DNA of 14,829 nucleotides from Candidatus Enterousia sp. (GTDB taxonomy: Bacteria; Pseudomonadota; Alphaproteobacteria; Rs-D84): assembly GCA_045613785.1 (NCBI GenBank), contig JAZLBQ010000014.1:1-14829 (forward strand), given 5' to 3'. How positions within the stretch are numbered: the first letter of the stretch is position 1; every line of letters starts with the position of its first letter. A program made the position numbers and the translations under genes. The notes beneath the pieces are model-generated. The model saw only the letters and a list, made by a program, of their open reading frames with translations, had not been told where the DNA came from and did not search any database. Positions 1-14,829 of the stretch are shown here, piece after piece.

Positions 1-1
1 T

Positions 2-325
2 GGATTGGGTAATTTGGCGACGAAGAATATAGCAACTTCTGTTACATCTGCATCAACCGATACTGAGGCACCAAGTGCGAAGGCAGTTTATACTTATGTA
101 GAACAGGTTCGTGGTGAATTGAATGAGGGTGTTGCTGGTGAATTGGATGATATTGATTCGAGTAAGCAACCAAAGTCAACTGCCGATTTGCAGGCTGGAA
201 CGTCAAGTGGTGGATGGGCGACAATCCCAACGGCGTCTCCGTCGGTGGCTGGGTTGGCAAAGATTGGTGTTATCCCATCTGGGTCTGCAACATCGACAAC
301 CTATGCTACGATTTGGGTTGAATAA
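2..325 (+). CDS. C-terminal part of a Ser/Thr/Ala-rich putative fibre/surface protein (5' truncated)
   Basis: Frame is open from the window edge (GGA at 2-4) to TAA 323-325 and is followed by a terminator. Segments LGNLATK, STDTEAPSAKAV and IPTASPSVAGLAK resemble tail-fibre-type repeats. Confidence 0.65.
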   Translation, partial: GLGNLATKNIATSVTSASTDTEAPSAKAVYTYVEQVRGELNEGVAGELDDIDSSKQPKSTADLQAGTSSGGWATIPTASPSVAGLAKIGVIPSGSATSTTYATIWVE

Positions 326-327
326 TT

Positions 328-352
328 AAATCCCCCGTTTGGGGGATTTTTT
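328..352 (+). terminator. Intrinsic terminator
   Basis: AAATCCCCC-GTTT-GGGGGATTT plus T-run, 2 nt after the stop codon. Confidence 0.9.
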
Positions 353-845
353 GTTTTCATTTTATTGATTTTGTATTATTTTCTTATTTGTTTATGTTCT
401 GTATTTTCTTGGCTTTTGCGGATACTTATTTTTATGATTGTTGTTTTTTGTGGCTATGTCTTCTGTGTTTTTTTGTTTCTTGGTTTAGCAACTGACAAAT
501 AAGTTGCTTGTTGTTGTCCTGATTTGTGAATCCCTTAGGTGGAATATTTTTTTGTTTTATTGTTTCTACAATGCTAAAAAAAGGGAGAGGATTGTTGGGT
601 TGTTTTTATTCTTTCTGGTAACCAATTTTTATTCGAGCAATCTGGTTGTCTTTTGTGTCGTTATTATGGTTTATGTTTACCTTTGACAGAGGTGGAACTG
701 ATTTAGGTATTTTCATTTGTTTATATCTTAGATGGTGTTTAGTTATATTGTTTTTCAATATTATGATAATAGTCTATGATAGGTGGTGTTTTGTTTATCG
801 CTTGCTATAAAAATGTTTCTGCAATTTTTGTAAAGGAAAGGATAT

Positions 846-868
846 AAAACCCGTGGGTAGGCCACGGG
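846..868 (-). terminator. Intrinsic terminator of the YqaA-family gene
   Basis: Minus strand reads CCCGTGG-CCTAC-CCACGGG-TTTT, about 30 nt after the stop codon. Confidence 0.75.
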
Positions 869-900
869 GGGGTGATTGTCTTAAATTAAATGGGGGGCTG

Positions 901-1476
901 TTAAAATAGGCTGATTAGTCCAATGCCAAGGCCGGCAGCAACAATCGCACCGATTGTCAATGGCCAAAAGTATTTTTTTACAATGGCATTTGCACGTTCT
1001 TGGAAAAAATAAAGCAGGGCACCGACAATTGCAAAGCGGCCTGTGCGGAAAATGGCGGATACGGCAAGGAATATCCACATTGGATAACCGATAAAACCAA
1101 GCCATATCGCGAGTAATTTATATGGTATTGGTGTTACAGCAGTTAGAACGATTATCAATATGCCATATTTTGTGAACATTGGCTTTATTGTGCTGTCGAT
1201 TAGTTCCGGATTTGAAAATGTTTCTATGAGCCACATCCCAACAGAATCATACAACCACATACCAATTAGATATGCGATCGCACCACCAACCAAAGAGCCA
1301 AGTGCCGCTGCAACCGTTATCGGTAATGCACGACGTTTGTTCGCAATGATTGGTGGGGTCATAAATACTTCGGGGGGGATAAACAGGAATATGGATTCGC
1401 ATATCGTCAATAAAAATACAACCCAAGAATATGCTCGTGATTCTGATTTCTTTAAGATATATTCTGAAAATTTCAT
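901..1476 (-). CDS. yqaA: YqaA/DedA (SNARE-associated, VTT-domain) family membrane protein
   Basis: Motifs ESIFLFIPPE, GSLVGGAIAYLIG, TPIPYKL and RTGRF with several hydrophobic helices. ATG 1476 is preferred over TTG 1494 because GGGGGA lies upstream as an SD. Confidence 0.88.
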   Translation of the reverse strand: MKFSEYILKKSESRAYSWVVFLLTICESIFLFIPPEVFMTPPIIANKRRALPITVAAALGSLVGGAIAYLIGMWLYDSVGMWLIETFSNPELIDSTIKPMFTKYGILIIVLTAVTPIPYKLLAIWLGFIGYPMWIFLAVSAIFRTGRFAIVGALLYFFQERANAIVKKYFWPLTIGAIVAAGLGIGLISLF

Positions 1477-1511
1477 TCCAATCCCCCGTTTCAATCTGAA
1501 AAATTTACTTG

Positions 1512-1541
1512 ATTGTAATTTATTTTTTTATATTTTACAAT
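1512..1541. promoter_or_regulatory. Symmetric bidirectional sigma70-type promoter (yqaA / rbfA)
   Basis: + strand: TTGTAA(1513-1518)-17 nt-TACAAT(1536-1541). - strand: TTGTAA(1540-1535)-17 nt-TACAAT(1517-1512). Confidence 0.6.
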
Positions 1542-1571
1542 TAGTTTAGATCTAACAAAAGAACGAAAATA

Positions 1572-1925
1572 ATGCAAAAAAAACAATTTAATTCAAATCG
1601 TGGTGAACGTATCGCTAGTAAAGTTCAGACACTGGTTGCAGAAATTCTGCGTGATGATTATACAGACGATCCAATCGTTTCCGGGGTGTCGTTGGTCGGA
1701 AGTGTGGCACACGGTGGACTGCAATTTGTGCGGCTGTTCTTTTATTCAAGAAACGAAAATATTGAAGCTGTCCAGGCAAAGTTGGATTCTATTACACGGA
1801 CAGTTCGATTCGAGTTGGCAAGGCGTATGAATCAAAAATATGTGCCAGATATTAAATTTGCATATGATGATACGTTGGAAAAAGCATCACGAATTGATGA
1901 ATTACTGAATAATTTGGAAAAGTAA
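1572..1925 (+). CDS. rbfA: 30S ribosome-binding factor A
   Basis: 117 aa; N-terminal RGERIAS, C-terminal KYVPDIKFAYDDTLEKASRIDELL typical of RbfA. Confidence 0.9.
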   Translation: MQKKQFNSNRGERIASKVQTLVAEILRDDYTDDPIVSGVSLVGSVAHGGLQFVRLFFYSRNENIEAVQAKLDSITRTVRFELARRMNQKYVPDIKFAYDDTLEKASRIDELLNNLEK

Positions 1926-1926
1926 T

Positions 1927-2334
1927 ATGATTCGTCGGGTTTTGAAGGTTAGTGATTCTTTGCAATTGGATTGTTATAATATTGCAAATTCTTCTGTTGG
2001 TGATGCGGATATGATTTATTATACGATTCGTGAACAGGTCAATAATGATGGATATGTGCTGTTTGTTTCAGAAGAAAATAGTTATATGCGTGGATTTGTC
2101 TTAGGTCATCAAGAGCGTGATTTGGGACGGGTTGATAGGTTGTATGTTGATAAGAGATATCATCGACAGGGAATAGGAACTTCTTTGCTGAAAGCATATG
2201 AGATTTACGCTAAGGAACAAGGGGCAAAACGTGTGGTTTTGTGTTCAAGGGCATCTGTTCAAGCGAAAAAATTTTATGAAAAAAATGGCTATCTGAGAAT
2301 CGCAAAAGATAGATTTATGGGAAAAAATTTGTAA
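1927..2334 (+). CDS. GNAT family N-acetyltransferase
   Basis: Acetyl-CoA motif A LYVDKRYHRQGIGTSLL and motif B AKKFYEKNGY. Confidence 0.9.
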   Translation: MIRRVLKVSDSLQLDCYNIANSSVGDADMIYYTIREQVNNDGYVLFVSEENSYMRGFVLGHQERDLGRVDRLYVDKRYHRQGIGTSLLKAYEIYAKEQGAKRVVLCSRASVQAKKFYEKNGYLRIAKDRFMGKNL

Positions 2335-2343
2335 AAATTCACC

Positions 2344-2375
2344 TTGATAATGCGGCAATCATATACTAGTATATG
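2344..2375 (+). promoter_or_regulatory. Putative lepA promoter with overlapping 16-bp palindrome
   Basis: TTGATA(2344-2349)-17 nt-TAGTAT(2367-2372); perfect palindrome CATATACTAGTATATG at 2360-2375. Confidence 0.55.
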
Positions 2376-2399
2376 CTGGTCAAACATAGGTGTTTTTGT

Positions 2400-4193
2400 A
2401 TGAAGCAATCTAATATCCGTAATTTTTCTATTGTTGCACATATTGATCACGGTAAATCGACCTTGTCAGACAGGTTGATTGAATTTACAGGTGGGTTGCA
2501 ATCACGTGAAATGAAAGCACAAGTTCTGGATTCTATGGACATTGAACGTGAACGGGGAATTACAATCAAGGCACAAACAGTGCGATTGAATTACAGGGCT
2601 AAAAATGGTGAAGAATATCAATTAAATTTGATGGATACTCCTGGACATGTGGACTTTTCATACGAGGTTTCTCGGTCGTTGGCAGCTTGCGAAGGAGCGT
2701 TAGTTCTGGTTGATGCAACACAAGGTGTTCAGGCACAGACATTGGCAAATGCATATCTGGCGTTGGATAATGATTTGGAAATGTTGCCAGTATTAAACAA
2801 AATCGATTTGCCATCAAGTGATGTTGCAGCAACACGTGAACAAATTGCAGATGTTATTGGGTTAGATGCAGATGAAGCATTGGCTGTTTCTGGCAAAACA
2901 GGTGATGGAGTGCCGGAACTGTTAGAAGAAATTGTAAATAAGTTGCCTGCACCACATGGTGATGAAAATGCAAGCACACGGGCATTGTTGGTCGATTCGT
3001 GGTATGATTCTTATTTGGGCGTTGTGATTCTGGTGCGTGTTGTTGACGGAACGTTAAAACGTGGGCAAAAAATAAAGTTCATGGCAACAGGTGCAGAATA
3101 TGTTGTCGATAAAATCGGATACTTTACCCCAAAGATGGTCAACGTTGATGAATTGCAGACAGGGGAAATCGGATTTATTATCACAGGTATGAAGACTATT
3201 CACGACTGTAAGGTCGGAGATACAATTATTGATGCACGTTGTGAAAATGCACAAATGTTGCCCGGATTTAAGCCGTCTGTGCCAGTGGTGTTTTCGTCTT
3301 TCTTTCCAGTAGAGGCAGATGATTATCCGACATTTCGTGAAAGTGCAGAAAAGTTGGCGTTAAATGATGCGTCTTTTATGTTTACTGTTGAAAAGTCGTC
3401 TGCGTTGGGTTTTGGGTTGCGGTGCGGTTTTTTGGGACTGCTGCATATGGAAATTATTAGTGAAAGATTATCTCGTGAATTTAATCTGAATCTTATAAAT
3501 ACTGTTCCAAGTGTGTTATATAAAATCCATTTGCGTGATGGGTCCGTGATTGACTTGGAAAATCCAGCTGATATGCCAGAACCTACAAAAATTGCGTCTA
3601 TTGAAGAACCCTGGGTTCGTGCAACGATTATGATGCCTGATAAATATATGGGCGGAATTATGTCGCTGTGTTCAGAACGTCGGGGCGTTCAAGAAAATAT
3701 TTCTTATGTCGGAAATCGTGCAGTTTTGGTTTATCAATTGCCACTGGCGGAAATTGTTTTTGATTTCTATGACAGGGTAAAATCTATTTCATCAGGATAT
3801 GCGTCGTTTGATTATGTCGTGTATGGATATCAGGCTTCTGATTTGGTCAAGGTCAATATCTTGGTAAATGAGGAGAATGTAGAGCCGTTGTCGTTTATGT
3901 GTCATCGGTCGTTTGCTGAAAAAAGAGGACGTCAGATTGTCGAAAAATTAAAAGATTTAATTCCAAGACATCAATTCAAAATACCTTTGCAGGCAGCTAT
4001 CGGTGGTAAAATTATCGCACGTGAAACAATCGCAGCATATCGCAAAGATGTTACTGCAAAGTGCTATGGCGGGGATATTACTCGTAAACGTAAATTGCTG
4101 GAAAAACAAAAAGAAGGTAAAAAACGTATGCGGTCGTTCGGAAATGTGGAAATCCCACAGTCGGCGTTCATCAATGCGTTAAAGGTATCGTAA
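2400..4193 (+). CDS. lepA: Translation elongation factor 4 (LepA)
   Basis: [41 protein letters not shown] and C-terminal [27 protein letters not shown] 2400 is preferred (AGGTG upstream; matches the usual N-terminus). Confidence 0.98.
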
Positions 4194-4211
4194 AATAAAG
4201 GTAAGAAAAAA

Positions 4212-4568
4212 ATGAGTTTTTGTTCGTATGTTATTAAAACACCAATGTCTCAGATTAGAGAAGACTGGAATGAGTTTGTGTCTTTGGTGCAGAAGGGGCG
4301 TTTTTTGGATAAGGAATGTAAGTATGTTGGAAAAAAATTGTATATAAATAAATCTGAACCATATGGCTGCATCGTTCGTGTTGAACCACAGGTAAAGGGT
4401 GGTGCACAAGTCAAGTATTGTGAAAACTTTTTTAAGACATCTTGTGATTGTTTGGAATGTCCGTCTGTTTGTAAGCATAACAGATATTGGCAGTTGATGC
4501 ATGAAAGAAAAGAAGTAATTACAAAAAAAGCAGAATTCTGGGAAAAGAAATTTCAGAATGTAAAATAA
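4212..4568 (+). CDS. Hypothetical Cys-rich protein
   Basis: 118-aa ORF filling the gap between lepA and the next gene; AAGG upstream; 8 Cys, clustered in YCENFFKTSCDCLECPSVCKH. Confidence 0.75.
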   Translation: MSFCSYVIKTPMSQIREDWNEFVSLVQKGRFLDKECKYVGKKLYINKSEPYGCIVRVEPQVKGGAQVKYCENFFKTSCDCLECPSVCKHNRYWQLMHERKEVITKKAEFWEKKFQNVK

Positions 4569-4590
4569 ATATATAACAAAGGGGTGGCCA

Positions 4591-5598
4591 ATGGCACACC
4601 AGTTCTATTTTAATCCGTATATCCTGGATAACCTGCCGGCACCAGTTAGTGGCTTTGATGTTGTTCAGGATATTTCAGAACCAAGACTGCGTATGTATAT
4701 AACTAGTCGTGGTATTAAAACCTTTTTTGTGCGTAAACGTGTGCGTGGAAAAGATAAACGGATTTTAATTGGTAAGTATCCAGATGTTGATATCGAAGAT
4801 GCACGCAGTGCTGTGCCACAGATTCTGGATAATGCTATGAAAAAGCCACCCGTGCGTCGAAAAAAAATTACTTTCAAACAGTTTGTTGATTTGTATCTGG
4901 CTAATAAGGTTAGAAGAAGTGAAGATTCGTATGTGAAACTTGTTCGGGCAATAAATCGTCATTTGTCAGGACTGTTTCATAAAAGAATTTGCGAAGTAAA
5001 TTCGATTGATATTAGGGCAACAGTTGCAACTATAGAAGGCAAGGCGATTGCAGCAAGAATGCAGGAATTGCTGCAGAGTATTTTTAACTATGCAATTGAA
5101 ATGGGCTATGTAAAAAATAACCCAGTTTTAGAAGTTGAAAAAATCGTTCAAAATAGACGACGTCGCCCGTTAAACAGGGCAGGGTTGCAACGTTTGTTTC
5201 AGAAGATTGATGAAATGACTGACCAGACGTTGAGAGCTGCTTTCTTGATGTTGATATATGGCTTTGCACCACGTTCGAAAATATTTTCTATGGCGTGGGA
5301 AGATTTAGATTTTAATCACGATATGTGGAATGGTTGGCCGTTGTCAGACAGGGCAATCGTATTGTTACAAGATTTGCCACAAGATGGTCAATGGGTCTTT
5401 CCTGGACGGGGTGGAATGCATTTGATGGATCCACGGACTGCGTGGCGACGGGTCGCAGAAAGTGCGGGAATCCCTAATTTGACAATGGATGATGTCTATA
5501 AATTCTTAATGCGACAGGTTCGTTGGGCATCGGATAAAGACGATTTTAGAGCAAACTTAAATACCTTGTTAGATGATATTTTTATCGAAGAATTTTAA
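4591..5598 (+). CDS. Tyrosine recombinase/integrase-like protein with arm-DNA-binding domain; catalytic site degenerate
   Basis: Arm domain (LRMYITSRGIKTFFVR...RILIGKYPDVDIEDAR), core-binding end (LQSIFNYAIEMGYVKNNP), catalytic scaffold (WEDLDF, PLSDRAI, WVFPG, AGIPNL); SD AAGGGG upstream. Confidence 0.88.
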   Translation: MAHQFYFNPYILDNLPAPVSGFDVVQDISEPRLRMYITSRGIKTFFVRKRVRGKDKRILIGKYPDVDIEDARSAVPQILDNAMKKPPVRRKKITFKQFVDLYLANKVRRSEDSYVKLVRAINRHLSGLFHKRICEVNSIDIRATVATIEGKAIAARMQELLQSIFNYAIEMGYVKNNPVLEVEKIVQNRRRRPLNRAGLQRLFQKIDEMTDQTLRAAFLMLIYGFAPRSKIFSMAWEDLDFNHDMWNGWPLSDRAIVLLQDLPQDGQWVFPGRGGMHLMDPRTAWRRVAESAGIPNLTMDDVYKFLMRQVRWASDKDDFRANLNTLLDDIFIEEF

Positions 5599-5607
5599 TT
5601 TTGCTTT

Positions 5608-5636
5608 TTGTCAACTTTGTTATTGTTTGTTATAAT
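5608..5636 (+). promoter_or_regulatory. acpP promoter P1
   Basis: TTGTCA-17 nt-TATAAT with extended -10 TG at 5628-5629. Confidence 0.7.
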
Positions 5637-5639
5637 TCC

Positions 5640-5668
5640 TTGACAGGCCCTTTGGAAAATGATAGTTT
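5640..5668 (+). promoter_or_regulatory. acpP promoter P2
   Basis: TTGACA-17 nt-TAGTTT with extended -10 TG at 5660-5661. Confidence 0.65.
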
Positions 5669-5727
5669 AGTGGGTAATGACGGTCATGGTATGGACCAAA
5701 CAATTTAACAAAAATAAAGGAAAAGAA

Positions 5728-5964
5728 ATGACAACTTTTGAAAAAGTAAAAAAAATCGTAGCTGAAAAACTGGGTGTGCCAGAGGAAAAAGTTACAGAAG
5801 AAGCAGCATTCGTTAATGATTTGGGTGCAGATTCTTTGGACGTTGTTGAATTCGTTATGGAAGTTGAAAAAGAATTTGATATCACAATTCCTGATGATGC
5901 AGCTGCAAAATTGGAAAAAGTTGGTGATGCAGTTAAATATATCGAAGAAAACAAGAAAAACTAA
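5728..5964 (+). CDS. acpP: Acyl carrier protein
   Basis: 78 aa, acidic; phosphopantetheine motif [11 protein letters not shown]; SD AAGGA before ATG 5728. Confidence 0.97.
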
Positions 5965-5989
5965 TTTTTGTTTCTAGATGTTTAATTCC

Positions 5990-6024
5990 CCGTCTGCGCT
6001 GGTTGGTGCAGACGGATTTTTTTT
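5990..6024 (+). terminator. Intrinsic terminator between acpP and fabF
   Basis: CCGTCTGCGCT-GGTT-GGTGCAGACGG followed by A and T8. Confidence 0.88.
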
Positions 6025-6101
6025 CTGTATTTTCGGCAATAAAATGTTTATCATAGTGCTGTATGTTAGTTATGTTGAACGATTATAAAGGAAACTAAAT
6101 T

Positions 6102-7349
6102 ATGAAAAGAGTTGTTATTACCGGTATGGGAATTGTTTCACCAGTGGGAACTGGACTTGAATATGCATGGAAAAATGTTGTCGCCGGTAAATCAGGGGTT
6201 AAAAAAATTGATTCTTTTGAAGTGTCGGATTTAGCATCGCAAATCGCAGGTCTTCCACAGGTCGGAACAGAACCAGGACAGTATAATCCAGATGCAGTCG
6301 TTGAACCTCGTGAACAGCGTAAGTTGGATAAGTATGCGTTGTATGGAATTGTTGCAGCAGACGAAGCAATTAAGGATGCAGGTCTGGATAAATACGAAGG
6401 TGATAAAAATCGTATCGGTGTAGCAATCGGCAGTGGTATCGGTGGGTTTAATACAATTTATGAAAATTGTATCGAATTACACGAAGGTGGACCACGCAGA
6501 GTTAGTCCGTTCTTTATCCCAAAGGGGATTATCAATATGGCTGCTGGTAATATTTCTATTAAATATGGATTAAAAGGTCCAAATATTTCTGTGGTGACTG
6601 CTTGTGCAACAGGGGCACACTCAATCGGTGAAGCAATGCGTATGATTAAATATGGCGATGCTGATATTATGGTTTGTGGTGGAACAGAAGGTGCAGTTAG
6701 TCGTATTGCATTGGCTGGGTTTTCATCAATGCGTGCATTAAGCACACGTAATGATGTACCAGAGGCAGCATCACGTCCATGGGATAAAAATCGTGATGGA
6801 TTTATTATGGCAGAAGGTGCTGGTGTTCTGGTTTTGGAAGAATATGAACATGCTGTTGCACGTGGGGCAAAAATCTATGCTGAGGTTGCAGGCTATGGTA
6901 TGTCAAGTGATGCATATCATATTACAGCACCTGCACCAAATGGTGAAGGGGGCAAGCGTGCAATGATTGCGGCATTAAATGATGCAGGTTTAACGCCAGC
7001 AGATGTTGATTATGTCAATGCACATGGGACTTCGACTGGTTTGGGAGATGTTGGTGAATTGGCAGCTGTTCAGGAATTGTTCGGTGATATGTCAGTGTCA
7101 ATGTCTTCAACAAAGTCTGTGACAGGACATTTGTTAGGTGCGGCCGGTGCAGTAGAAGCAATCTTCTGTGCGTTGGCGATTCGTGATGGTGTTGTGCCAC
7201 CAACAATCAATCTGGATGAACCAGAAGATGTGGTTGGTAATTTTGACTTGGTTCCGCACAAGGCTAAAGAACGCAAGGTTGATGTTGCAATCAGCAATTC
7301 GTTTGGGTTTGGTGGAACAAATGCCAGTATTGTTCTGAAAAAAATCTAA
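6102..7349 (+). CDS. fabF: Beta-ketoacyl-ACP synthase II
   Basis: RVVITGMG start; Cys-His-His triad contexts TACATG, NAHGTST and GHLLGAAG; C-terminal SNSFGFGGTN. Confidence 0.97.
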   Translation: MKRVVITGMGIVSPVGTGLEYAWKNVVAGKSGVKKIDSFEVSDLASQIAGLPQVGTEPGQYNPDAVVEPREQRKLDKYALYGIVAADEAIKDAGLDKYEGDKNRIGVAIGSGIGGFNTIYENCIELHEGGPRRVSPFFIPKGIINMAAGNISIKYGLKGPNISVVTACATGAHSIGEAMRMIKYGDADIMVCGGTEGAVSRIALAGFSSMRALSTRNDVPEAASRPWDKNRDGFIMAEGAGVLVLEEYEHAVARGAKIYAEVAGYGMSSDAYHITAPAPNGEGGKRAMIAALNDAGLTPADVDYVNAHGTSTGLGDVGELAAVQELFGDMSVSMSSTKSVTGHLLGAAGAVEAIFCALAIRDGVVPPTINLDEPEDVVGNFDLVPHKAKERKVDVAISNSFGFGGTNASIVLKKI

Positions 7350-7375
7350 GTGATTGTTTTTGAACGGAGTTTGAA

Positions 7376-7696
7376 ATGAATTATGAAACATTGAAGAAGT
7401 TGTTGACTGTGTCAAACCCAAGATGTTGGGTTAATGGCAAGAAGGTTGCGATGGATAATGGTGTGGCTGTTTGGGAATATGACTTTGGTGGTATAGGCAG
7501 TCCGCATGTTGTTGTTCGTGGCGTGGATTCAAATAATCCTAAATTGCAATTTTCTTCAAGTGCATACGGTGTGTTTGTAGATGGAAAAAAGTTGGAAATG
7601 GAAAAATCGCAGTATCTGGAATTGTTTGGTCAGGCGGGATATTTGTTTTCTGTTGTCCAGCCAACAAAATTAAAACAGCAAACACAAAATCGTTAA
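7376..7696 (+). CDS. Hypothetical protein
   Basis: 106-aa ORF with GGAG SD, immediately followed by a terminator; no family recognised. Confidence 0.75.
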   Translation: MNYETLKKLLTVSNPRCWVNGKKVAMDNGVAVWEYDFGGIGSPHVVVRGVDSNNPKLQFSSSAYGVFVDGKKLEMEKSQYLELFGQAGYLFSVVQPTKLKQQTQNR

Positions 7697-7698
7697 AG

Positions 7699-7723
7699 AA
7701 ATCCCCGTTTGGGGATTTTTTTT
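7699..7723 (+). terminator. Intrinsic terminator
   Basis: AAATCCCC-GTTT-GGGGATTT plus T-run. Confidence 0.9.
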
Positions 7724-7727
7724 GCGG

Positions 7728-7756
7728 TTGATTTTTTTATGACTTGGTTGCATAAT
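7728..7756 (+). promoter_or_regulatory. tRNA promoter
   Basis: TTGATT-17 nt-CATAAT followed by GC-rich discriminator CGTGGCG. Confidence 0.65.
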
Positions 7757-7772
7757 CGTGGCGTTTGGTTTA

Positions 7773-7849
<77 letters not shown>

Positions 7850-7858
7850 GATTTTTGT

Positions 7859-7883
7859 GCATCGTGTTTTACGATGCTTTTTT
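7859..7883 (+). terminator. tRNA terminator
   Basis: GCATCGT-GTTTT-ACGATGC-TTTTTT. Confidence 0.85.
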
Positions 7884-7904
7884 AAAAAAAAATTTGTTTT
7901 TTAT

Positions 7905-7933
7905 TTGTATTTTGACATATCGCACATTATATT
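7905..7933 (+). promoter_or_regulatory. Putative promoter of the acyl-CoA synthetase gene
   Basis: TTGTAT-17 nt-TATATT; very AT-rich context weakens the call. Confidence 0.4.
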
Positions 7934-7961
7934 ATTTTCTGCATAGGAAAAAGGAATAAAT

Positions 7962-9653
7962 ATGTTTTTTAAACGGTTCTTGAAAAAAGATAATTTTGAA
8001 AATTATGATGATTATCTTCAAAATGCAGCTCCGGTTGTTCCAGATAACTTTAATTTTGCGTATGATGTGTTGGATGAGATTGCAAATGAAACACCAGACA
8101 AGGTTGCACTTCTGTGGGTAAATGATAGTGGTGAAAAGAAAAGTATTACGTTCAAAATGTTGTCGCAATGGTCAAATTCGGTGGCAAATTTTTTAAAGGA
8201 ACGTGGGTTAAAACGTGGTGATACTGTTTTGTTGTTTATGCGTCGCAGATGGGAATACTGGGTCTTGATGATGGCGATGCATAAATTAGGTGTGATTCCA
8301 ATCCCGTCAACAAATCAATTAAAGTTTAAGGATATTAAATACAGGCTGGCTAGTGCAGAAGTTGCAGCTGTTATCGCTTTTGATGATGGGGTGATTGTAA
8401 ATGAAATTAAAACCGCAATCGGTGAAAATGAAAATATACAGTTGATTGATTGTGCTGATGTTGAACGGGCTTGTTATGATTATCCAGCAGAATTAGAACG
8501 TGTGCCAAATGAAAATACCGATACGATGGTTGTCTATTTTACCAGTGGAACAACAGATATGCCGAAAATGGTGGCTCATAATTTTGCTTATCCGTTAGGG
8601 CATATAAATACAGCTGTTTTCTGGCAACGTTTACGTGATGGTGATATTCATTTTACGTTGTCAGAATCGGGTTGGGCAAAATGTTCGTGGGGTAAAATGT
8701 ATGGGCAGTGGTTGGCAGGGGCAACTGTCTTTGTGTTCGATTTTAGCCGGTTGTTTACTGCACACGATTTGTTGAGTGCGATTAGTGAAAATCATATTAC
8801 GTCTTTTTGTGCACCGCCAACGGCATACAAGATGATGATAAACACTGATATGAGTCGCTATGATTTAAGTTCTTTGAAAAAGGCAGATGTTGCAGGTGAG
8901 GCGTTAAATCCAGAAGTCTATGAAAGATTTCTTGCAAATACGGGTGTCAAACTGCGTGAGGGGTTCGGACAGACTGAAACTTGTGTAATGATTTTTACAA
9001 ATGAATGGCTTGAACCAAAACCAGGTGCAATGGGTATGCCGGCTGCGGGTTGGGACGTTCAGTTGTTAGATGAACGTGGACGACCGATTGTAGAACCAAA
9101 TGTGGTTGGTGAAATTTCTGTGATGGTTAAAGATGCAAAACCGTTGGGTTTGTTCCAGGGGTATCATAAAAATGAAAAGCAGACGGCGGCTGTCTATCGT
9201 GATGGAGTTTATCATACCGGTGATATGGCATATCGTGATGAAGACGGATATTTCTGGTTCGTGGGACGTAATGACGACTTGATTAAGACCAGTGGTTATC
9301 GTGTTAGTCCGTTTGAAGTCGAATCGGTTTTGTTAGAACATCCAGCTGTTCGTGAAGTGGCTGTTACAGGTGTTCCAGATGCCGCACGTGGTCAGGCAGT
9401 AAAGGCAACGATTGTTTTGAATAAATATTTTCAGCAAACAGATGCCTTGGTTCGTCAATTGCAGGATCATGCCCGCTTAAAGGCGGCACATTATAAGTGT
9501 CCACGTGTTATAGAGTTTGTCGAAACGTTGCCTATGACAATCAGTGGCAAGATACGTCGTGCATTGATTAGAACATTGGATAGTGCCAAGGAATCTATTG
9601 TTGATCCAATTAAAAATACGATTGGTTTGGGTAAAGAAGAAGAGGATAAATAA
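7962..9653 (+). CDS. AMP-forming short/medium-chain acyl-CoA synthetase (ANL superfamily, MACS-like)
   Basis: YFTSGTTDMPK P-loop, EGFGQTET, YHTGD, GRNDDLIKTSGYRVSPFEVES, TISGKIRR; SD AAGGA. Confidence 0.93.
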   Translation: MFFKRFLKKDNFENYDDYLQNAAPVVPDNFNFAYDVLDEIANETPDKVALLWVNDSGEKKSITFKMLSQWSNSVANFLKERGLKRGDTVLLFMRRRWEYWVLMMAMHKLGVIPIPSTNQLKFKDIKYRLASAEVAAVIAFDDGVIVNEIKTAIGENENIQLIDCADVERACYDYPAELERVPNENTDTMVVYFTSGTTDMPKMVAHNFAYPLGHINTAVFWQRLRDGDIHFTLSESGWAKCSWGKMYGQWLAGATVFVFDFSRLFTAHDLLSAISENHITSFCAPPTAYKMMINTDMSRYDLSSLKKADVAGEALNPEVYERFLANTGVKLREGFGQTETCVMIFTNEWLEPKPGAMGMPAAGWDVQLLDERGRPIVEPNVVGEISVMVKDAKPLGLFQGYHKNEKQTAAVYRDGVYHTGDMAYRDEDGYFWFVGRNDDLIKTSGYRVSPFEVESVLLEHPAVREVAVTGVPDAARGQAVKATIVLNKYFQQTDALVRQLQDHARLKAAHYKCPRVIEFVETLPMTISGKIRRALIRTLDSAKESIVDPIKNTIGLGKEEEDK

Positions 9654-9654
9654 T

Positions 9655-9678
9655 AAATGCCCCATTTGGGGCATTTTT
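9655..9678 (+). terminator. Intrinsic terminator
   Basis: AAATGCCCC-ATTT-GGGGCATTTTT. Confidence 0.88.
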
Positions 9679-9733
9679 AGTTTTGTAATCTTGTCGTTGA
9701 AAATAATTTTTATTTTGTAATAATTTATTGGCT

Positions 9734-10744
9734 ATGCCAAGACGAAGAAAATTTTTCCCAAAACGTATTTTAATGCAAATTGTAATTGCACCTTGTGTTA
9801 TCGTGGTGTGTGCGCTGGTGTATATGTTCGGTGTTCATACTGTGGTAAAGCAACCCGTTGTCTTTGATATTGTTGCGGGGGATACAGTGTCAGGGGTGGC
9901 ACAAAGATTGTTGAAAAATAATTTAATCGATTCGGAACAAGTTTTTAAAATGGCCGTTCGATTAAATGGTGGTAAAATTCAAAGTGGGCAATATGATATT
10001 CCGGTCGCCGCCAGCAGTTGGCGAATCGCTGATATGTTCGCAAATGGACGGGTTGCGTCAACGACTGTTGTAATTCCAGAAGGTTTGACTGTTAAACAAA
10101 TAAAGCAACTGTTGTTGCGGTCTTCAGCCTTGACTGGGGCGGTTGAGTGTAAATCCGGTAATGATGCACCTGTTTGTAATTTGCGTGATGGACAAATCTT
10201 TCCAGATACATACACTGTTGCACGTGGGACGAATCGTTTGGCGTTGCTGGATTTAGCACGGAAAAGAATGGTTGATATAGAACATGTGCTGGCTAGGACT
10301 GTTAAAAGATTGCCAAAACCACTGAAAAATTGGAACGAGGTTTTGACGTTGGCTTCGATTGTTCAAAAAGAAACGCCTCGTGCCGAAGAAATGCCAATTG
10401 TAGCCAGTGTTTATTTAAATCGATTGAATAAAGGTATGCGTTTGCAAGCCGATCCAACAGTGGTCTATGTTTTGACAGATGGTTTGGGGGATATGCAGGG
10501 GCAACCATTGTTGCGGGGGCATTTGAAAATCGAAAGTCCATATAATACTTACAGAAATGGTGGATTGCCACCAGCACCAATCGCAAATGTTGGACAGGCG
10601 GCGATTCGGGCGGTCTTGATGCCGGCGGATACAAATTATTTCTTTTTTGTCGCAGATGGCAAAGGTGGTCATAAGTTTGCCAAGGACTATGAAGAACATC
10701 AAAAAAATCACGCTAATTGGCGTAAGATTAAAAGTAAATTATAA
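9734..10744 (+). CDS. mltG: Endolytic transglycosylase MltG (YceG family)
   Basis: Basic N-terminus plus one TM helix; IPEG, FPDTY, LASIVQKET, NRLNKGMRLQADPTV, SPYNTY, GLPPAPIAN. Start is ATG 9734 or TTG 9728. Confidence 0.95.
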   Translation: MPRRRKFFPKRILMQIVIAPCVIVVCALVYMFGVHTVVKQPVVFDIVAGDTVSGVAQRLLKNNLIDSEQVFKMAVRLNGGKIQSGQYDIPVAASSWRIADMFANGRVASTTVVIPEGLTVKQIKQLLLRSSALTGAVECKSGNDAPVCNLRDGQIFPDTYTVARGTNRLALLDLARKRMVDIEHVLARTVKRLPKPLKNWNEVLTLASIVQKETPRAEEMPIVASVYLNRLNKGMRLQADPTVVYVLTDGLGDMQGQPLLRGHLKIESPYNTYRNGGLPPAPIANVGQAAIRAVLMPADTNYFFFVADGKGGHKFAKDYEEHQKNHANWRKIKSKL

Positions 10745-10775
10745 AAAAATTCTTTCTTTCCTTAGTGGGGGGGGT

Positions 10776-10824
10776 GGAACGTGATTACGTTCCTGTTTAT
10801 ATATTTGTTTATGACTTCTAGAAT
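10776..10824 (+). promoter_or_regulatory. Inverted repeat plus putative promoter of the outer-membrane protein gene
   Basis: GGAACGT-GATT-ACGTTCC (10776-10793; operator or mltG terminator), then TTTATA(10796-10801)-17 nt-TAGAAT(10819-10824). Confidence 0.5.
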
Positions 10825-10847
10825 AGTAGTGCGAAAGGAGAGAAGTT

Positions 10848-11600
10848 ATGAAAAAAGTTTCTTGTTTAGTTGTTGGGCTGCTGTTGTTTGGAGTTAGTAG
10901 GGCAAATGCAACCAATGTTATTGATGGAAATCTATTTTATAATCCAAAGCAGGGGCATTTTTATGATGTTTTTACGCCTGTTGGTATAAATACAAAATTT
11001 GAACGCTTTGTTATGACGAATGAATTGGGCTATGGTGTCTCAGATGCGTTCTCTGTTCGGGTTGTAACATCTGGGTCGTATGATTCGTCGGATAATCCTG
11101 AATTTGGTAAGTGGTCATGGAATGATTTGAATTTTGGCTTTGATTGGGATTTGTGGCACCAAGGTGAAAGAGTCGCCGAAGTCTATGGAGATGTAAAACA
11201 AATTTATAATACCAAACATAATTTGCAAACTGTGGCGTATAATTGGAGCTTGGGGGCAAGAGTAGGGCGTTTGGCAGATAATTGGGCAATGGCAGGAATT
11301 GTTCAGGTGGACTATCTGAACGATGATTTGCCAGAAGATACATTTGACGCATGGGCAATGACCGTTGGTATGCAGGGGCAGTATATTTTGAACAATAGGT
11401 GGAACTTGGTTGCTGGCTTGATGTTTGATTTTGACTTGTTTGATAAATATTATGACGGAGAACAACTAAGATTAGAGTTTGGAGCAAACTATAATTTTGA
11501 TGCGACAAAATATATAGGCTTTGCTGTGAATAAAGATGTTGTTCATAGTTTTGAGGATGCACCATTATGGTTTAATGTTAAATTTGGTATAGATTTTTGA
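10848..11600 (+). CDS. Putative outer-membrane beta-barrel protein
   Basis: Signal peptide ending ANA; alternating aromatic/Gly strands; C-terminal beta-signal WFNVKFGIDF; SD AAGGAG. Confidence 0.85.
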   Translation: MKKVSCLVVGLLLFGVSRANATNVIDGNLFYNPKQGHFYDVFTPVGINTKFERFVMTNELGYGVSDAFSVRVVTSGSYDSSDNPEFGKWSWNDLNFGFDWDLWHQGERVAEVYGDVKQIYNTKHNLQTVAYNWSLGARVGRLADNWAMAGIVQVDYLNDDLPEDTFDAWAMTVGMQGQYILNNRWNLVAGLMFDFDLFDKYYDGEQLRLEFGANYNFDATKYIGFAVNKDVVHSFEDAPLWFNVKFGIDF

Positions 11601-11606
11601 TTAAAC

Positions 11607-11628
11607 GCCCGTTGTGTGACGGGCTTTT
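11607..11628 (+). terminator. Intrinsic terminator
   Basis: GCCCGTT-GTGT-GACGGGC-TTTT. Confidence 0.8.
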
Positions 11629-11735
11629 GTTTTGTTTGGGACAAAGTGAAAATTTGTCATTCTTGTAAAAGTTCTAAATTCCTAATTTTTCGGGCTTTTC
11701 AAGCGGATTTCTTATGTTTTTTTCCTAGATTTTTC

Positions 11736-11764
11736 TTGACAATTTGGGGGTGTGTGATTATAGT
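11736..11764 (+). promoter_or_regulatory. str operon promoter
   Basis: TTGACA-17 nt-TATAGT. Confidence 0.85.
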
Positions 11765-11770
11765 ATGTTC

Positions 11771-11878
11771 GCTTTCTGTGTAATTATGGAAAGCAGAGAG
11801 GACATGAAAACCGCTTTGGAATGCAGATTTATAATCCGGCTAAGTCGTTGAAATAAGTCTGAATAAGCGGGTTTTGTG
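11771..11878 (+). ncRNA. Candidate structured rpsL leader RNA
   Basis: Hairpin at 11771-11794 and long stem 11803-11816/11865-11878 with inner helix 11824-11832/11853-11861. Confidence 0.5.
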
Positions 11879-11915
11879 CAGAGTAAAATAGGTAAAAGAA
11901 ACAAAGAGATTTTGA

Positions 11916-12287
11916 ATGCCAACAGTAAACCAACTGATTCGGAAGCCTCGTAAAAAAGTTGCAGTGAAAAGCACTGCTCCTGACATGATGGAAAACCCAC
12001 AGAAACGTGGTGTTTGCACACGTGTTTATACGACAACACCGAAAAAACCTAACTCGGCGCAGCGTAAGGTTGCCCGTGTAAAACTGGCAAACGGCCGTGA
12101 AGTAACAGCATATATCCCTGGTGAAGGTCATAACTTGCAGGAACACAGTGTTGTTATGATTCGTGGCGGTCGTGTAAAGGACTTGCCTGGTGTAAAGTAT
12201 CATATCATCCGTGGCGTATTGGATACCAAGGGTGTTGATGCACGTAAACAGGGTCGTTCTTTGTATGGTGCCAAAACAAAGAAATAA
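11916..12287 (+). CDS. rpsL: 30S ribosomal protein S12
   Basis: [40 protein letters not shown]. Confidence 0.99.
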
Positions 12288-12367
12288 TTATGTTTAACCA
12301 CACATATGTAATGTATGTGAGTAATCTGGAAAATAAAACCAGATGAAGTGATAAAAGGAAAATAAAT

Positions 12368-12844
12368 ATGTCAAGACGTAAAGCTGCGACAAAACGTGAA
12401 ATATTGCCAGATTCCAAATACGGTAATTTGGTTGTTGCAAAATGTATTAATGTTGTTATGTGGGACGGCAAAAAAGAAGTTGCTGAAAACATTGTATATG
12501 GTGCATTGGATAAATTGAAGACATTGGCCAAAGATGGTAAAGATGAATTGACCTTGTTCTTGGAAGCGGTCGATGCATTAAAGCCTTCTGTTGAAGTAAA
12601 AGGTCGTCGTGTAGGTGGTGCAACATACCAGGTGCCTGTCGAAGTTCGACCAGCACGTCAGCAGACAATGGCGTTGCGTTGGTTGGTTGGTTTCGCACGT
12701 AAACGTGGTGAACGCAGCATGGAAGACAGACTGTTTGGCGAATTGCGTGATGCACTGAATAGTCAGGGTGGTGCATTCAAAAAGAAAATTGATACCCATA
12801 AGATGGCAGAAGCGAACAAAGCATTTGCTCACTTCCGCTGGTAA
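12368..12844 (+). CDS. rpsG: 30S ribosomal protein S7
   Basis: [14 protein letters not shown]; C-terminal [15 protein letters not shown]. Confidence 0.99.
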
Positions 12845-12871
12845 TAAATACAAAGGCAAAGGAAAGATACA

Positions 12872-14829
12872 ATGTCAGTCGGAAAAACCGCACCTTTACA
12901 TATGTACCGCAATATCGGCATTATGGCCCATATTGATGCGGGTAAAACAACTACTTCGGAACGTATCTTGTTCTATACGGGTAAGACTTATAAAATCGGT
13001 GAAGTGCACGATGGTGGTGCAACGATGGACTGGATGGCCCAGGAACAGGAACGTGGAATTACAATTACGTCAGCGGCAACTACATGCTTTTGGCGTGACC
13101 ATCGTATCAACTTGATTGATACCCCAGGACACGTGGACTTTACAATGGAAGTAGAACGTTCTTTGCGTGTTTTGGACGGTGCGGTTGCCGTATTTGAATC
13201 TGTATCTGGCGTGCAGCCACAGACAGAAACTGTATGGCGTCAGGCTGACCGTTATGCTGTTCCACGTATTTGCTTTATCAATAAAATGGATCGTATCGGT
13301 GGTAATTTCTTCCGCTGTGTTGATATGATTCGTGAACGTTTGGGGGCAAATCCATTGGTCGTCAATTTCCCAATCGGTGCAGAATCTGATTTCCGTGGTG
13401 TAGTTGACGTTATCGAAATGCGTGCAATTGTCTGGGAAGACGATATGGGTAAAGAACCACGTATCACAGAAATTCCAGAAGAATTGAAAGAAAAAGCCCA
13501 GGAACTGCATGAAAAGTTGATTGAAGAAGTTGTTACCTTGGACGATGAAATTATGGAAGCTTATATGGAAGGCAATGTTCCAGATACAGCAACTATTAAA
13601 AAGTTGATCCGCAAGGGAACAATCAATCAGAACTTTAACCCAGTTTTGTGCGGAACAGCATTTAAGAACAAGGGTGTTCAGCCATTGTTAGATGCGATTG
13701 TTGACTATTTGCCAAGCCCATTGGATATTCCTGCAATTCAGGGAACAAAGATGGACGGCGAAACAGCTGACTCTCGTAAGCCAGACGCAAAAGAACCTTT
13801 TAGTGCCTTGGCGTTTAAGGTTGCAAATGACCCATTTGTTGGTAACTTGATGTTTATCCGTATCTATTCTGGTAAATTGGTATCGGGTTCATATATTTAT
13901 AATTCTAACCGTGATAAACGTGAACGTGTTGGACGTATGTTGTTGATGCACTCAAATAACCGTGAAGAAATCAAAGAAGCGTCAGCAGGTGATATTATCA
14001 CTTTGGTTGGTATGAAGGAAACAATTACTGGTGATACATTATGCGATGAATCAAATCCAATCTTGTTGGAATCAATTCACGTTCCAGAGCCAGTTATGAG
14101 TATCGCAGTTGAACCAAAAACAAAGGCAGATATTGAAAAAATGTCTTTGGGTCTGCAAGCGTTGGCCAAAGAAGATCCTTCGTTCCGTGTTTCTGTTGAC
14201 GAAGAATCAGGTCAGACGATTTTGTCAGGTGTTGGTGAATTGCACTTGGAAATTTTGGTTGATCGTTTGTTGCGTGAATTTAAGGTTGATGTTAACGTTG
14301 GTGAACCACGTATTGCATACCGTGAAACATTCCGCAAACCTATCACCGAAGAATATACACACAAAAAACAGTCTGGTGGTTCGGGTCAGTATGCCCAGGT
14401 TAAAATCGAATTTGAACCATTAGAACCAGGTAAGGGTTATGAATTCGAAAACAAGATTGTTGGTGGTGCGATTCCAAAAGAATACATCCCAGGTGTGGAA
14501 AAAGGTTTGAAGATAGCACAACAGACAGGTGTTCTGATTGGCTATCCAACAGTGGATTTCAAGGCTACATTGGTAGATGGTAAGTATCATGAAGTTGACT
14601 CTAATGTATTATGCTTTGAAATTGCGGCACGTGCCTGCTTCCGTGAAGCGATGAAGAAGGCTGCGCCAAAATTGCTGGAACCGATTATGAAGCTTTCGGT
14701 TAATACACCGGAAGAATACGTCGGTGACATCATTGGGGACTTGAACAGTCGTCGTGGACAAATCAATGGTATCGAAACTCAGTTCGGTAATCAGTTGATT
14801 TCAGCATATGTTCCATTGGCAAATCTGTT
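12872..14829 (+). CDS. fusA: Elongation factor G (3' truncated by window end)
   Basis: Manual translation from ATG 12872: [73 protein letters not shown]; frame stays open to the window end. Confidence 0.99.

Follow-up and report, generated by a model that had tools for sequence, protein, structure and literature searches.

What becomes of an integrase that has lost the means to cut DNA but not its place in the chromosome? The question is raised by a gene, here named INTL, on a contig of Candidatus Enterousia sp. (Alphaproteobacteria; assembly GCA_045613785.1, contig JAZLBQ010000014.1), of which positions 1 to 14,829 of the forward strand, hereafter the window, were analysed. INTL encodes a protein of 335 amino acids (aa) that resembles the integrases of mobile elements, yet it is found among housekeeping genes, between lepA and acpP. 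On balance we lean towards the reading that INTL is a domesticated, non-catalytic DNA-binding host protein, derived from a RhuM-linked islet integrase and serving a regulatory or architectural role.

Bacterial cases in which the recombinase of a mobile element became a non-cutting host protein are few, and the published ones that were found, MrpR/SroF and TnsF, reside on phages or transposons. Here a family of gut bacteria carries an arm-binding integrase that has turned into a near-universal, syntenic gene under selection. INTL may thus be a lineage-specific regulator or a chromosome-organising protein, and it is a natural case for the study of how the DNA-recognition module of an integrase is reused. 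There is a practical side as well. Island-finding tools are described as using integrases with arm-binding domains as markers (PMC8138268), and such tools would mislabel the INTL locus as a mobile element.

Loss of the catalytic residues

Tyrosine recombinases are defined by a catalytic R-K-H-R-H/W set and a Tyr nucleophile, and INTL carries neither. For comparison, eight full-length integrases (386-405 aa) were taken from genomes of this bacterial order and aligned with the window protein and its relatives, 39 orthologues together. Among these comparators, Arg-I, the hairpin Lys and the His and Arg of H-x-x-R are present in 8/8, the Tyr in 7/8 and His-III in 6/8. In the alignment, all six active-site positions of the window protein are substituted or deleted. 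P227 stands in the Arg-I column, the Lys hairpin is deleted, H-D-L-R reads D300-D-V-Y303, and the His-III and Tyr columns are gone, with no His beyond residue 277 and no Tyr beyond 303.

The first-pass annotation of this DNA had read four losses by eye: the first Arg of the TGxRxxE box, the Lys beta-hairpin, H-D-L-R and the LGH...Y segment. Each is borne out across the family. The Arg-I column holds Pro in 23 orthologues, Asn in four, Lys in three, Arg, Ser and Thr in two each, and Gln, Gly and Cys in one each. The hairpin is removed by a 10-column deletion in 37/39 and reduced to a 4-residue stub in the other two. The His-II column has Asp in 28, Asn in eight and Ala, Thr and Ser in one each; the Arg-II column has His in 17, Tyr in 14, Asn in five and Thr in three; thus neither the His nor the Arg is present in any of the 39. 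A 24-column deletion takes out the His-III and Tyr columns in 39/39. In keeping with this, the match of the window protein to Phage_integrase (PF00589) is below threshold, 16.4 bits against a cut-off of 27.1, and covers only profile positions 7-100 of 172.

Could adjacent residues have taken over? It had been allowed that R228 and Y303 might restore a working site. R228, however, aligns with the Lys or Arg that follows Arg-I in the comparators (K in four, R in four) and is therefore not a displaced Arg-I, and Y303 is unconserved, as the Arg-II column varies. Judged from these columns, neither residue could rebuild an active site.

Two of the comparators have peculiarities of their own. L027 and L028 carry Asp at the His-III column. 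In L027 (L027:4668-5858; genome G007, contig 2), which is a paralogous integrase of 397 aa, His also replaces the nucleophilic Tyr, and the remaining four catalytic residues are intact; L027 may represent a second, independent inactivation.

Retention of the fold

With the 39 orthologues as input alignment, AlphaFold2 gives a model whose mean predicted local distance difference test score (pLDDT) is 91.4 and whose best Protein Data Bank (PDB) match by Foldseek is full-length lambda Int (1z1b_A, E 1.7e-9). The core-binding (CB) and catalytic (CAT) domains together align with 1z1b_A over 226 residues (VIA; Z 14.0, root-mean-square deviation (rmsd) 4.6). Taken singly, the arm domain matches that of the HPI integrase (3jtz; VIA; Z 11.7, rmsd 2.0, 77 residues) and 3rmp_C (Z 11.1), the CB domain an IntB fragment (2kj9; Z 14.0, rmsd 2.9, 97 residues) and the CAT remnant the lambda Int catalytic core (1ae9_B; Z 11.0, 127 aligned). 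At the profile level, Arm-DNA-bind_3 (PF13356) scores above its cut-off on residues 32-79 (29.4 bits, cut-off 27), and Phage_int_M (PF22022) scores under its cut-off of 27 on residues 95-181 (23.9 bits); a precomputed PF22022 hit is present on most homologues. The model thus indicates that INTL keeps the three-domain fold of lambda/P4-type integrases. The comparison with these integrases had been proposed from the sequence alone; it matched the fold and found the catalytic columns lost. The CAT remnant retains the fold core and the C-terminal helix, in which R320 and N324 are conserved in 38/39, while the four catalytic elements described above are missing from it.

Conservation is strongest in the arm domain. 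Residues 1-72 hold 22 of the 33 invariant columns, and the mean frequency of the top residue is 0.74 in the arm, 0.56 in the CB and 0.64 in the CAT domain. The arm and CB domains are basic (family mean net charge +4.6 and +10.3), similarly to the comparators. The CAT remnant has a family mean of +4.4 with a range of -3 to +12, the window protein being at -3. Net charge of the CAT domain was considered as a mark of dead copies and rejected, since it does not separate them from the comparators.

Distribution and selection

How widely is the dead form kept? Within the genus an orthologue is found in 23/24 genomes at E ≤ 1e-137; the 24th (G005, 70% complete) has only a weak, paralogue-level match. 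A family-wide search gave matches at E ≤ 1e-10 in 148/151 genomes, the window genome counted, from 17/18 genera. With a profile, 170/171 other genomes of the family match at E ≤ 1e-20, 167 of them at E ≤ 1e-120. The weaker profile matches are in G208, G172 and G068, where the family-wide search placed the match at a contig end, and G055 has none. Beyond the family, the profile reaches E ≤ 1e-20 in 6/29 genomes of five other families of the order (best 9e-75). The sister-family matches that were read (G025, G026, G040, G031) are proteins of 386-392 aa with intact catalytic motifs and other genomic contexts, and the dead form was not found in these 29 genomes. Among 1.84 billion representative proteins searched, six full-length proteins (327-353 aa) and five fragments match at E ≤ 3e-64; below that step the proteins are mostly 378-450 aa long and are matched to about profile position 320 only. 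By these searches the dead form is restricted to a narrow lineage, and in the genomes sampled it stays within one GTDB family of the order. Where source names are given for its members, they are proteins of metagenome-assembled genomes labelled 'Alphaproteobacteria bacterium', annotated as 'integrase family protein' or 'hypothetical protein'.

The frames are intact throughout, in 20/20 copies read in the genus (332-337 aa) and in 19/19 full copies read in other genera. Length stays within 329-354 aa even where identity falls to 34%. The position is largely fixed as well. In the genus, acpP lies 3' in 20/20 loci and lepA 5' in 18/20, the stretch having ended short of lepA in the other two. Outside the genus, lepA adjoins INTL in 13 of 20 loci and acpP is 3' in 12; five have neither neighbour, two of them cut by contig ends, and in one INTL is found beside mltG-fabF on the opposite strand. 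The carrier genomes are small, about 0.5-1.3 Mb, and retention of the gene in genomes of this size argues that it is useful. In the window genome (1.04 Mb, 96.5% complete) INTL is single-copy.

The ratio of nonsynonymous to synonymous divergence (dN/dS) was calculated by the method of Nei and Gojobori (NG86) for the 18 of 190 same-genus pairs with dS below 1.5. It is 0.069-0.247 over these pairs, with domain values of 0.03-0.17 for the arm and 0.03-0.21 for the CAT domain. The least saturated pair has 0.069 overall, 0.029 in the arm, 0.104 in the CB and 0.068 in the CAT domain. These values point to purifying selection on all three domains, the dead catalytic domain included.

The signs of a mobile element are missing from the locus. 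As first read, no excisionase or island cargo is named by Pfam among the neighbours, and a search for att-like direct repeats of at least 15 nt flanking INTL found none. No tRNA is adjacent: the sole tRNA of the window, tRNA-Pro(CGG) at 7773-7849, is 2.2 kb 3' of INTL, past acpP and fabF. No directionality factor is named among the neighbours, which are housekeeping genes, and the position is fixed across the family.

The first-pass annotation had suggested selection for a non-recombinase role, and had named close homologues with an intact catalytic set, a patchy distribution and dN/dS near 1 as the marks of a decaying relic. The search for single-copy orthologues in conserved synteny found the gene near-universal and syntenic within one GTDB family, its homologues are without the set in 39/39, and dN/dS is about 0.07-0.25. 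The suggestion is therefore supported.

Origin and descent

In the gene tree, the 39 dead copies fall on one side of a branch that separates them from the eight full-length comparators (Shimodaira-Hasegawa-like approximate likelihood ratio test (SH-aLRT) support 100), and genera cluster inside the dead clade. A comparison of gene and species trees had been called for. Pairwise identity of INTL tracks that of fabF (Spearman 0.82, 465 pairs) and lepA (0.71, 406 pairs), the pairs not being independent. Tree and identities together indicate a single origin with largely vertical inheritance.

The nearest full-length relatives, L021-L023 (386-387 aa; profile E 9e-75 to 1e-69), are 30% identical to INTL by tblastn and 32-33% in a second search. 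Their arm-domain strands closely resemble those of INTL. They keep R, K, H-x-x-R, H and Y and are not next to lepA or acpP, and INTL differs in both respects. Full-length relatives (L021:5034-7179, L026:4048-6259) lie directly behind, and overlap, a RhuM-family gene, in surroundings of island-type genes (PIF1 helicase, HNH, DUF4209); no tRNA is found within about 5 kb of these RhuM-linked integrases. Another integrase, L028, is near Fic, KAP-NTPase and methylase genes. In the dead-form locus L042 (genus g12; L042:3353-4339), a RhuM-N/Fic open reading frame (ORF) is present exactly between lepA and the dead gene. This ORF could be left over from the ancestral arrangement, or it could have arrived later.

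The course of events was then probably as follows. A small integrative islet, linked to RhuM, would have inserted behind lepA in the common ancestor of the family, bringing with it the integrase from which INTL descends. Recombinase chemistry was lost afterwards, and selection has kept the product as a host protein with its arm-binding domain, its basic core-binding domain and a trimmed CAT scaffold. Such a protein would bind specific DNA without cutting it, either as a clamp on one site, like MrpR/SroF, or as a bridge from arm to core sites, like lambda Int, and its role would be regulatory or architectural.

Points against domestication and alternative readings

Several observations weigh against this reading. 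Synonymous sites are saturated in most pairs, and 172/190 had to be left out of the dN/dS estimates. INTL evolves faster than its neighbours, with a mean identity of 0.56 against 0.73 for fabF and 0.90 for lepA. With Arg-I, Lys, His-II and Arg-II gone, the old DNA-contact pocket has lost positive charge; together with the net charge of the window protein's CAT remnant, this means that the remnant may no longer touch DNA. One genus, g24, is without INTL in all genomes searched (0/2 in the family-wide search, 0/1 in the profile search). In g24 genome G066, acpP begins 144 nt after lepA, and in G055 an acyl carrier protein (ACP)-like ORF lies between lepA and acpP. Did g24 branch off before the gene arrived? 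A tree of the single gene LepA, rooted with three sister-family genomes, places g24 as sister to G042 (SH-aLRT 97), inside the starred set of eight rows and among gene-bearing lineages. The absence reads as a secondary loss, and the nested position of g24 implies that at least one lineage can do without the gene. Sister families do not have lepA and acpP side by side.

A DNA target of INTL was sought in the repeat of the downstream spacer and in the arm-site repeats of relatives, and none was found. The spacer candidate, a tandem TTGTTAT repeat, was rejected: it is also present 5' of acpP in two g24 genomes without INTL, and in L038, where acpP is 3 kb away. Its presence where INTL is absent or distant fits a feature of the acpP promoter. 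Across the genome, two exact copies of the tandem are found, against 0-1 in five simulated genomes; with one mismatch allowed per half there are 212 matches against 96-109 simulated, too weak an excess to define a regulon. The arm sites of active relatives were likewise rejected as a guide, since the repeats 5' of RhuM-int modules are AT-rich and differ between loci. The TGTTATTTGTT-like copies of L021 only loosely resemble the acpP repeat.

Might INTL instead be an immunity decoy? It would occupy the arm and core sites of incoming RhuM-Int islets, or poison their mixed tetramers, and so block integration or excision. Active-type relatives from the same integrase clade are present in this bacterial order, some of them in the very genomes that carry INTL, and the likeness of the arm domain to that of L021-L023 would suit such a role. 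So would the conserved helix at the C-terminus, as this helix mediates protomer contacts in tyrosine-recombinase/integrase enzymes. No arms-race signature is seen, however: conservation peaks in the arm domain, and dN/dS is low. Full-length paralogues also coexist with INTL in many genomes (G004, G007, G014, G022), and these are only 24-27% identical to it (tblastn). We regard the decoy as unlikely.

A second alternative concerns the proteins encoded just upstream. The slot between lepA and INTL holds 0-4 tandem genes per locus (32 loci) for proteins of 103-166 aa with four cysteines; loci with such genes include the window, L002-L020, L036, L037 and L040. The family evolves fast (mean column identity 20%) and has no Pfam match. 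C53 and C83 are invariant, C70 and C78 are present in at least 90%, and a FW..KF..VK motif lies at the C-terminal end. INTL could be a DNA-bound platform for these proteins as exchangeable modulators, for which SroF with its antirepressor Sar is described as a precedent (10.1101/2025.11.27.690993). The variable copy number speaks for this reading. In three gene-bearing genomes searched whole, the family profile matches only in the slot 5' of INTL (1, 3 and 3 copies), and in two g24 genomes without INTL it has no match. In 12/32 loci, though, INTL has no such gene 5', so that its function cannot depend on them, and the adjacency could equally reflect a slot permissive for tandem duplication. 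A complex prediction for INTL with its 118-aa neighbour returned 'no answer' (scores 0.25, 0.45 and 0.17, mark 0.32) and speaks neither for nor against binding. A scaffold of this kind seems improbable to us. A bolder version, to which we also give a low probability, would make INTL and the four-cysteine proteins one lineage-specific chromosomal module for defence or gene control, with INTL as the platform on sites of the RhuM-Int-islet type and the zinc proteins as modulators or effectors. If true, it would be a new kind of module built from a captured integrase.

Could INTL be an accessory subunit of an active recombinase, either of XerC/XerD type or of a visiting integrase, supplying arm-site binding or synapsis? 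Two canonical PF00589 proteins of XerC/XerD size (148.6 and 124.3 bits) are present in the window genome, which has no further integrase of INTL type, and INTL retains the fold and the C-terminal helix. The xer genes are on other contigs, however, with no co-localisation, and there are no arm-type or att-type repeats nearby. To our knowledge, Xer systems use no arm-binding partners. This role is very improbable.

That INTL is a functionless, decaying relic of a dead mobile element is hardly credible: its integrase ancestry, its loss from one genus and its pace relative to fabF and lepA are outweighed by the intact frames, the length held over wide divergence, the low dN/dS and the retention in small genomes. 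Equally little credence can be given to a recombinase with an unconventional active site, which could draw on basic residues beside the old Arg-I (K/R228, 39/39) and after the old Arg-II (K304, 38/39) but would have no residue at the nucleophilic Tyr or His-III columns in any copy, a varying residue 303 and no hairpin in 37/39.

Relation to known systems

INTL shares its three-domain architecture, and clear homology, with the P4, CP4-57 and HPI-type integrases, for which lambda Int is the model. It differs from P4-type integrases in having no active site, in the hairpin and C-terminal deletions and in being a vertically inherited host gene. As INTL fails the defining catalytic features, it should not be classified as one of them.

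A functional parallel is offered by the master repressors of SPbeta-like phages, MrpR (YopR) and SroF (PDB 8a0a, 8bpz, 9rd5), with which INTL shares the fold and the catalytic loss. MrpR is described as a DNA-binding repressor with a tyrosine-recombinase fold that has lost recombinase function (PMC10516654), and SroF as clamping a 24-bp operator as a monomer (10.1101/2025.11.27.690993). Structural matches of INTL to them (Z 8.4 for 8a0a_A, 8.3 for 9rd5_H) are below those to active integrases, and MrpR/YopR/SroF are not among the four matches at E ≤ 1 in a phmmer search of INTL against PDB sequences. These repressors have two domains, no arm-binding domain and a phage location, and MrpR keeps the Tyr and Lys, whereas INTL is chromosomal and has an arm domain.

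TnsF of Tn6022-like Tn7 transposons is another inactivated descendant of a tyrosine recombinase, retained for its DNA recognition, as INTL would be. It is described as having an N-terminal zinc-finger region and as working with Tn7 transposition proteins (Faure et al. 2023, PMC10293859); a Pfam scan of INTL and 18 window ORFs shows no TnsF-type zinc-finger domain and no Tn7 neighbour. INTL arose independently of both MrpR/SroF and TnsF. In eukaryotes, Crypton-derived host genes are reported as tyrosine-recombinase genes domesticated from mobile elements (Kojima and Jurka 2011, PMC3212892). Compared by description only, they belong to an unrelated lineage and have different domain fusions. No earlier description of a chromosomal, vertically inherited dead arm-binding integrase was found in the open-access literature searched.

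Expression and the acpP spacer

The reading of an uninterrupted frame, opened by ATG behind lepA and a small ORF and provided with a Shine-Dalgarno (SD) sequence, holds: AAAGGGG lies 7-13 nt 5' of the start, and the intervening ORF encodes 118 aa. How is the gene expressed? In the 12/32 loci where no ORF intervenes, the gap from lepA to INTL is 7-156 nt. In the window, the plus strand of this interval shows neither a terminator-like site nor a promoter-like one with more than 9/12 matches. INTL is thus probably co-transcribed with lepA and expressed by constitutive read-through. In one RNA run (share 0.23 of the stretch) a 63-base piece with six mismatches falls on the gene; the depth is low, the piece comes from contigs and it is uninformative either way.

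Downstream, acpP has a conserved tandem promoter-like region. Its first part, TTGTCA-17-TATAAT at 5608-5636, is the best promoter-like site of the region (11/12 matches) and encloses the TTGTTAT repeat (5617-5633); the second is TTGACA at 5640-5645, followed by an extended -10. The whole spacer from INTL to acpP (5599-5727) is almost invariant across the genus, and includes a leader hairpin at about 5680-5697 whose stem co-varies between species. Apart from the tRNA, Rfam finds nothing in the window, so that the hairpin corresponds to none of the families described there. Between lepA and acpP, divergent ACP-like ORFs are found in two instances, a 172-aa ORF in G055 (L057:3031-3549) and a 100-aa ORF inside the four-cysteine array of L019.

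The locus and other features

The gene inventory of the window rests on ORFs with their translations and the Pfam scan. Features of the locus are collected in Table 1. The co-oriented gene order is rbfA, a GNAT acetyltransferase gene, lepA, the 118-aa ORF, INTL, acpP and fabF, followed by a 106-aa ORF, tRNA-Pro(CGG), an AMP-binding enzyme gene, mltG, rpsL, rpsG and fusA.

Table 1. Coordinates of INTL, its domains and the adjoining features in the window
Feature	Position	Strand	Remarks
INTL (name used here), gene for catalytically dead integrase-derived protein	4591..5598	+	335 aa plus stop
Arm-DNA-binding domain, P4-type	4591..4845	+	Residues 1-85; most conserved part; Pfam PF13356, 3jtz match
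Core-binding (Phage_int_M-like) helical domain	4846..5160	+	Residues 86-190; strongly basic; PF22022 (below cut-off), 2kj9
Catalytic-domain (CAT) remnant	5161..5595	+	Residues 191-335; alignments, 1ae9_B
lepA (EF4)	2373..4193	+	Conserved upstream neighbour
118-aa protein, fast-evolving four-cysteine family	4212..4568	+	Fills lepA-INTL slot
Tandem promoter-like region of acpP	5608..5668	+	Conserved
acpP	5677..5964	+	Conserved downstream neighbour; probable start 5728 (in frame, conserved start with SD)

GC skew is strongly positive throughout positions 1-14829 (0.12-0.33 per 1-kb window), and all Pfam-named genes are on the plus strand with the sole exception of a VTT-domain ORF (901-1494). Both are consistent with a housekeeping block on the leading strand. 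The interval between fabF and mltG, which here (7376-9653) holds the 106-aa ORF, the tRNA gene and the AMP-binding enzyme gene, is variable: mltG is directly 3' of fabF in several other genera (L034, L039, L046), and g24 carries the AMP-binding gene, but in the opposite orientation. A terminator-like hairpin, CCCCGTTTGGGG, followed by a T run, is present in three copies (333-352, 7703-7722 and 9660-9679), each after an unrelated gene.

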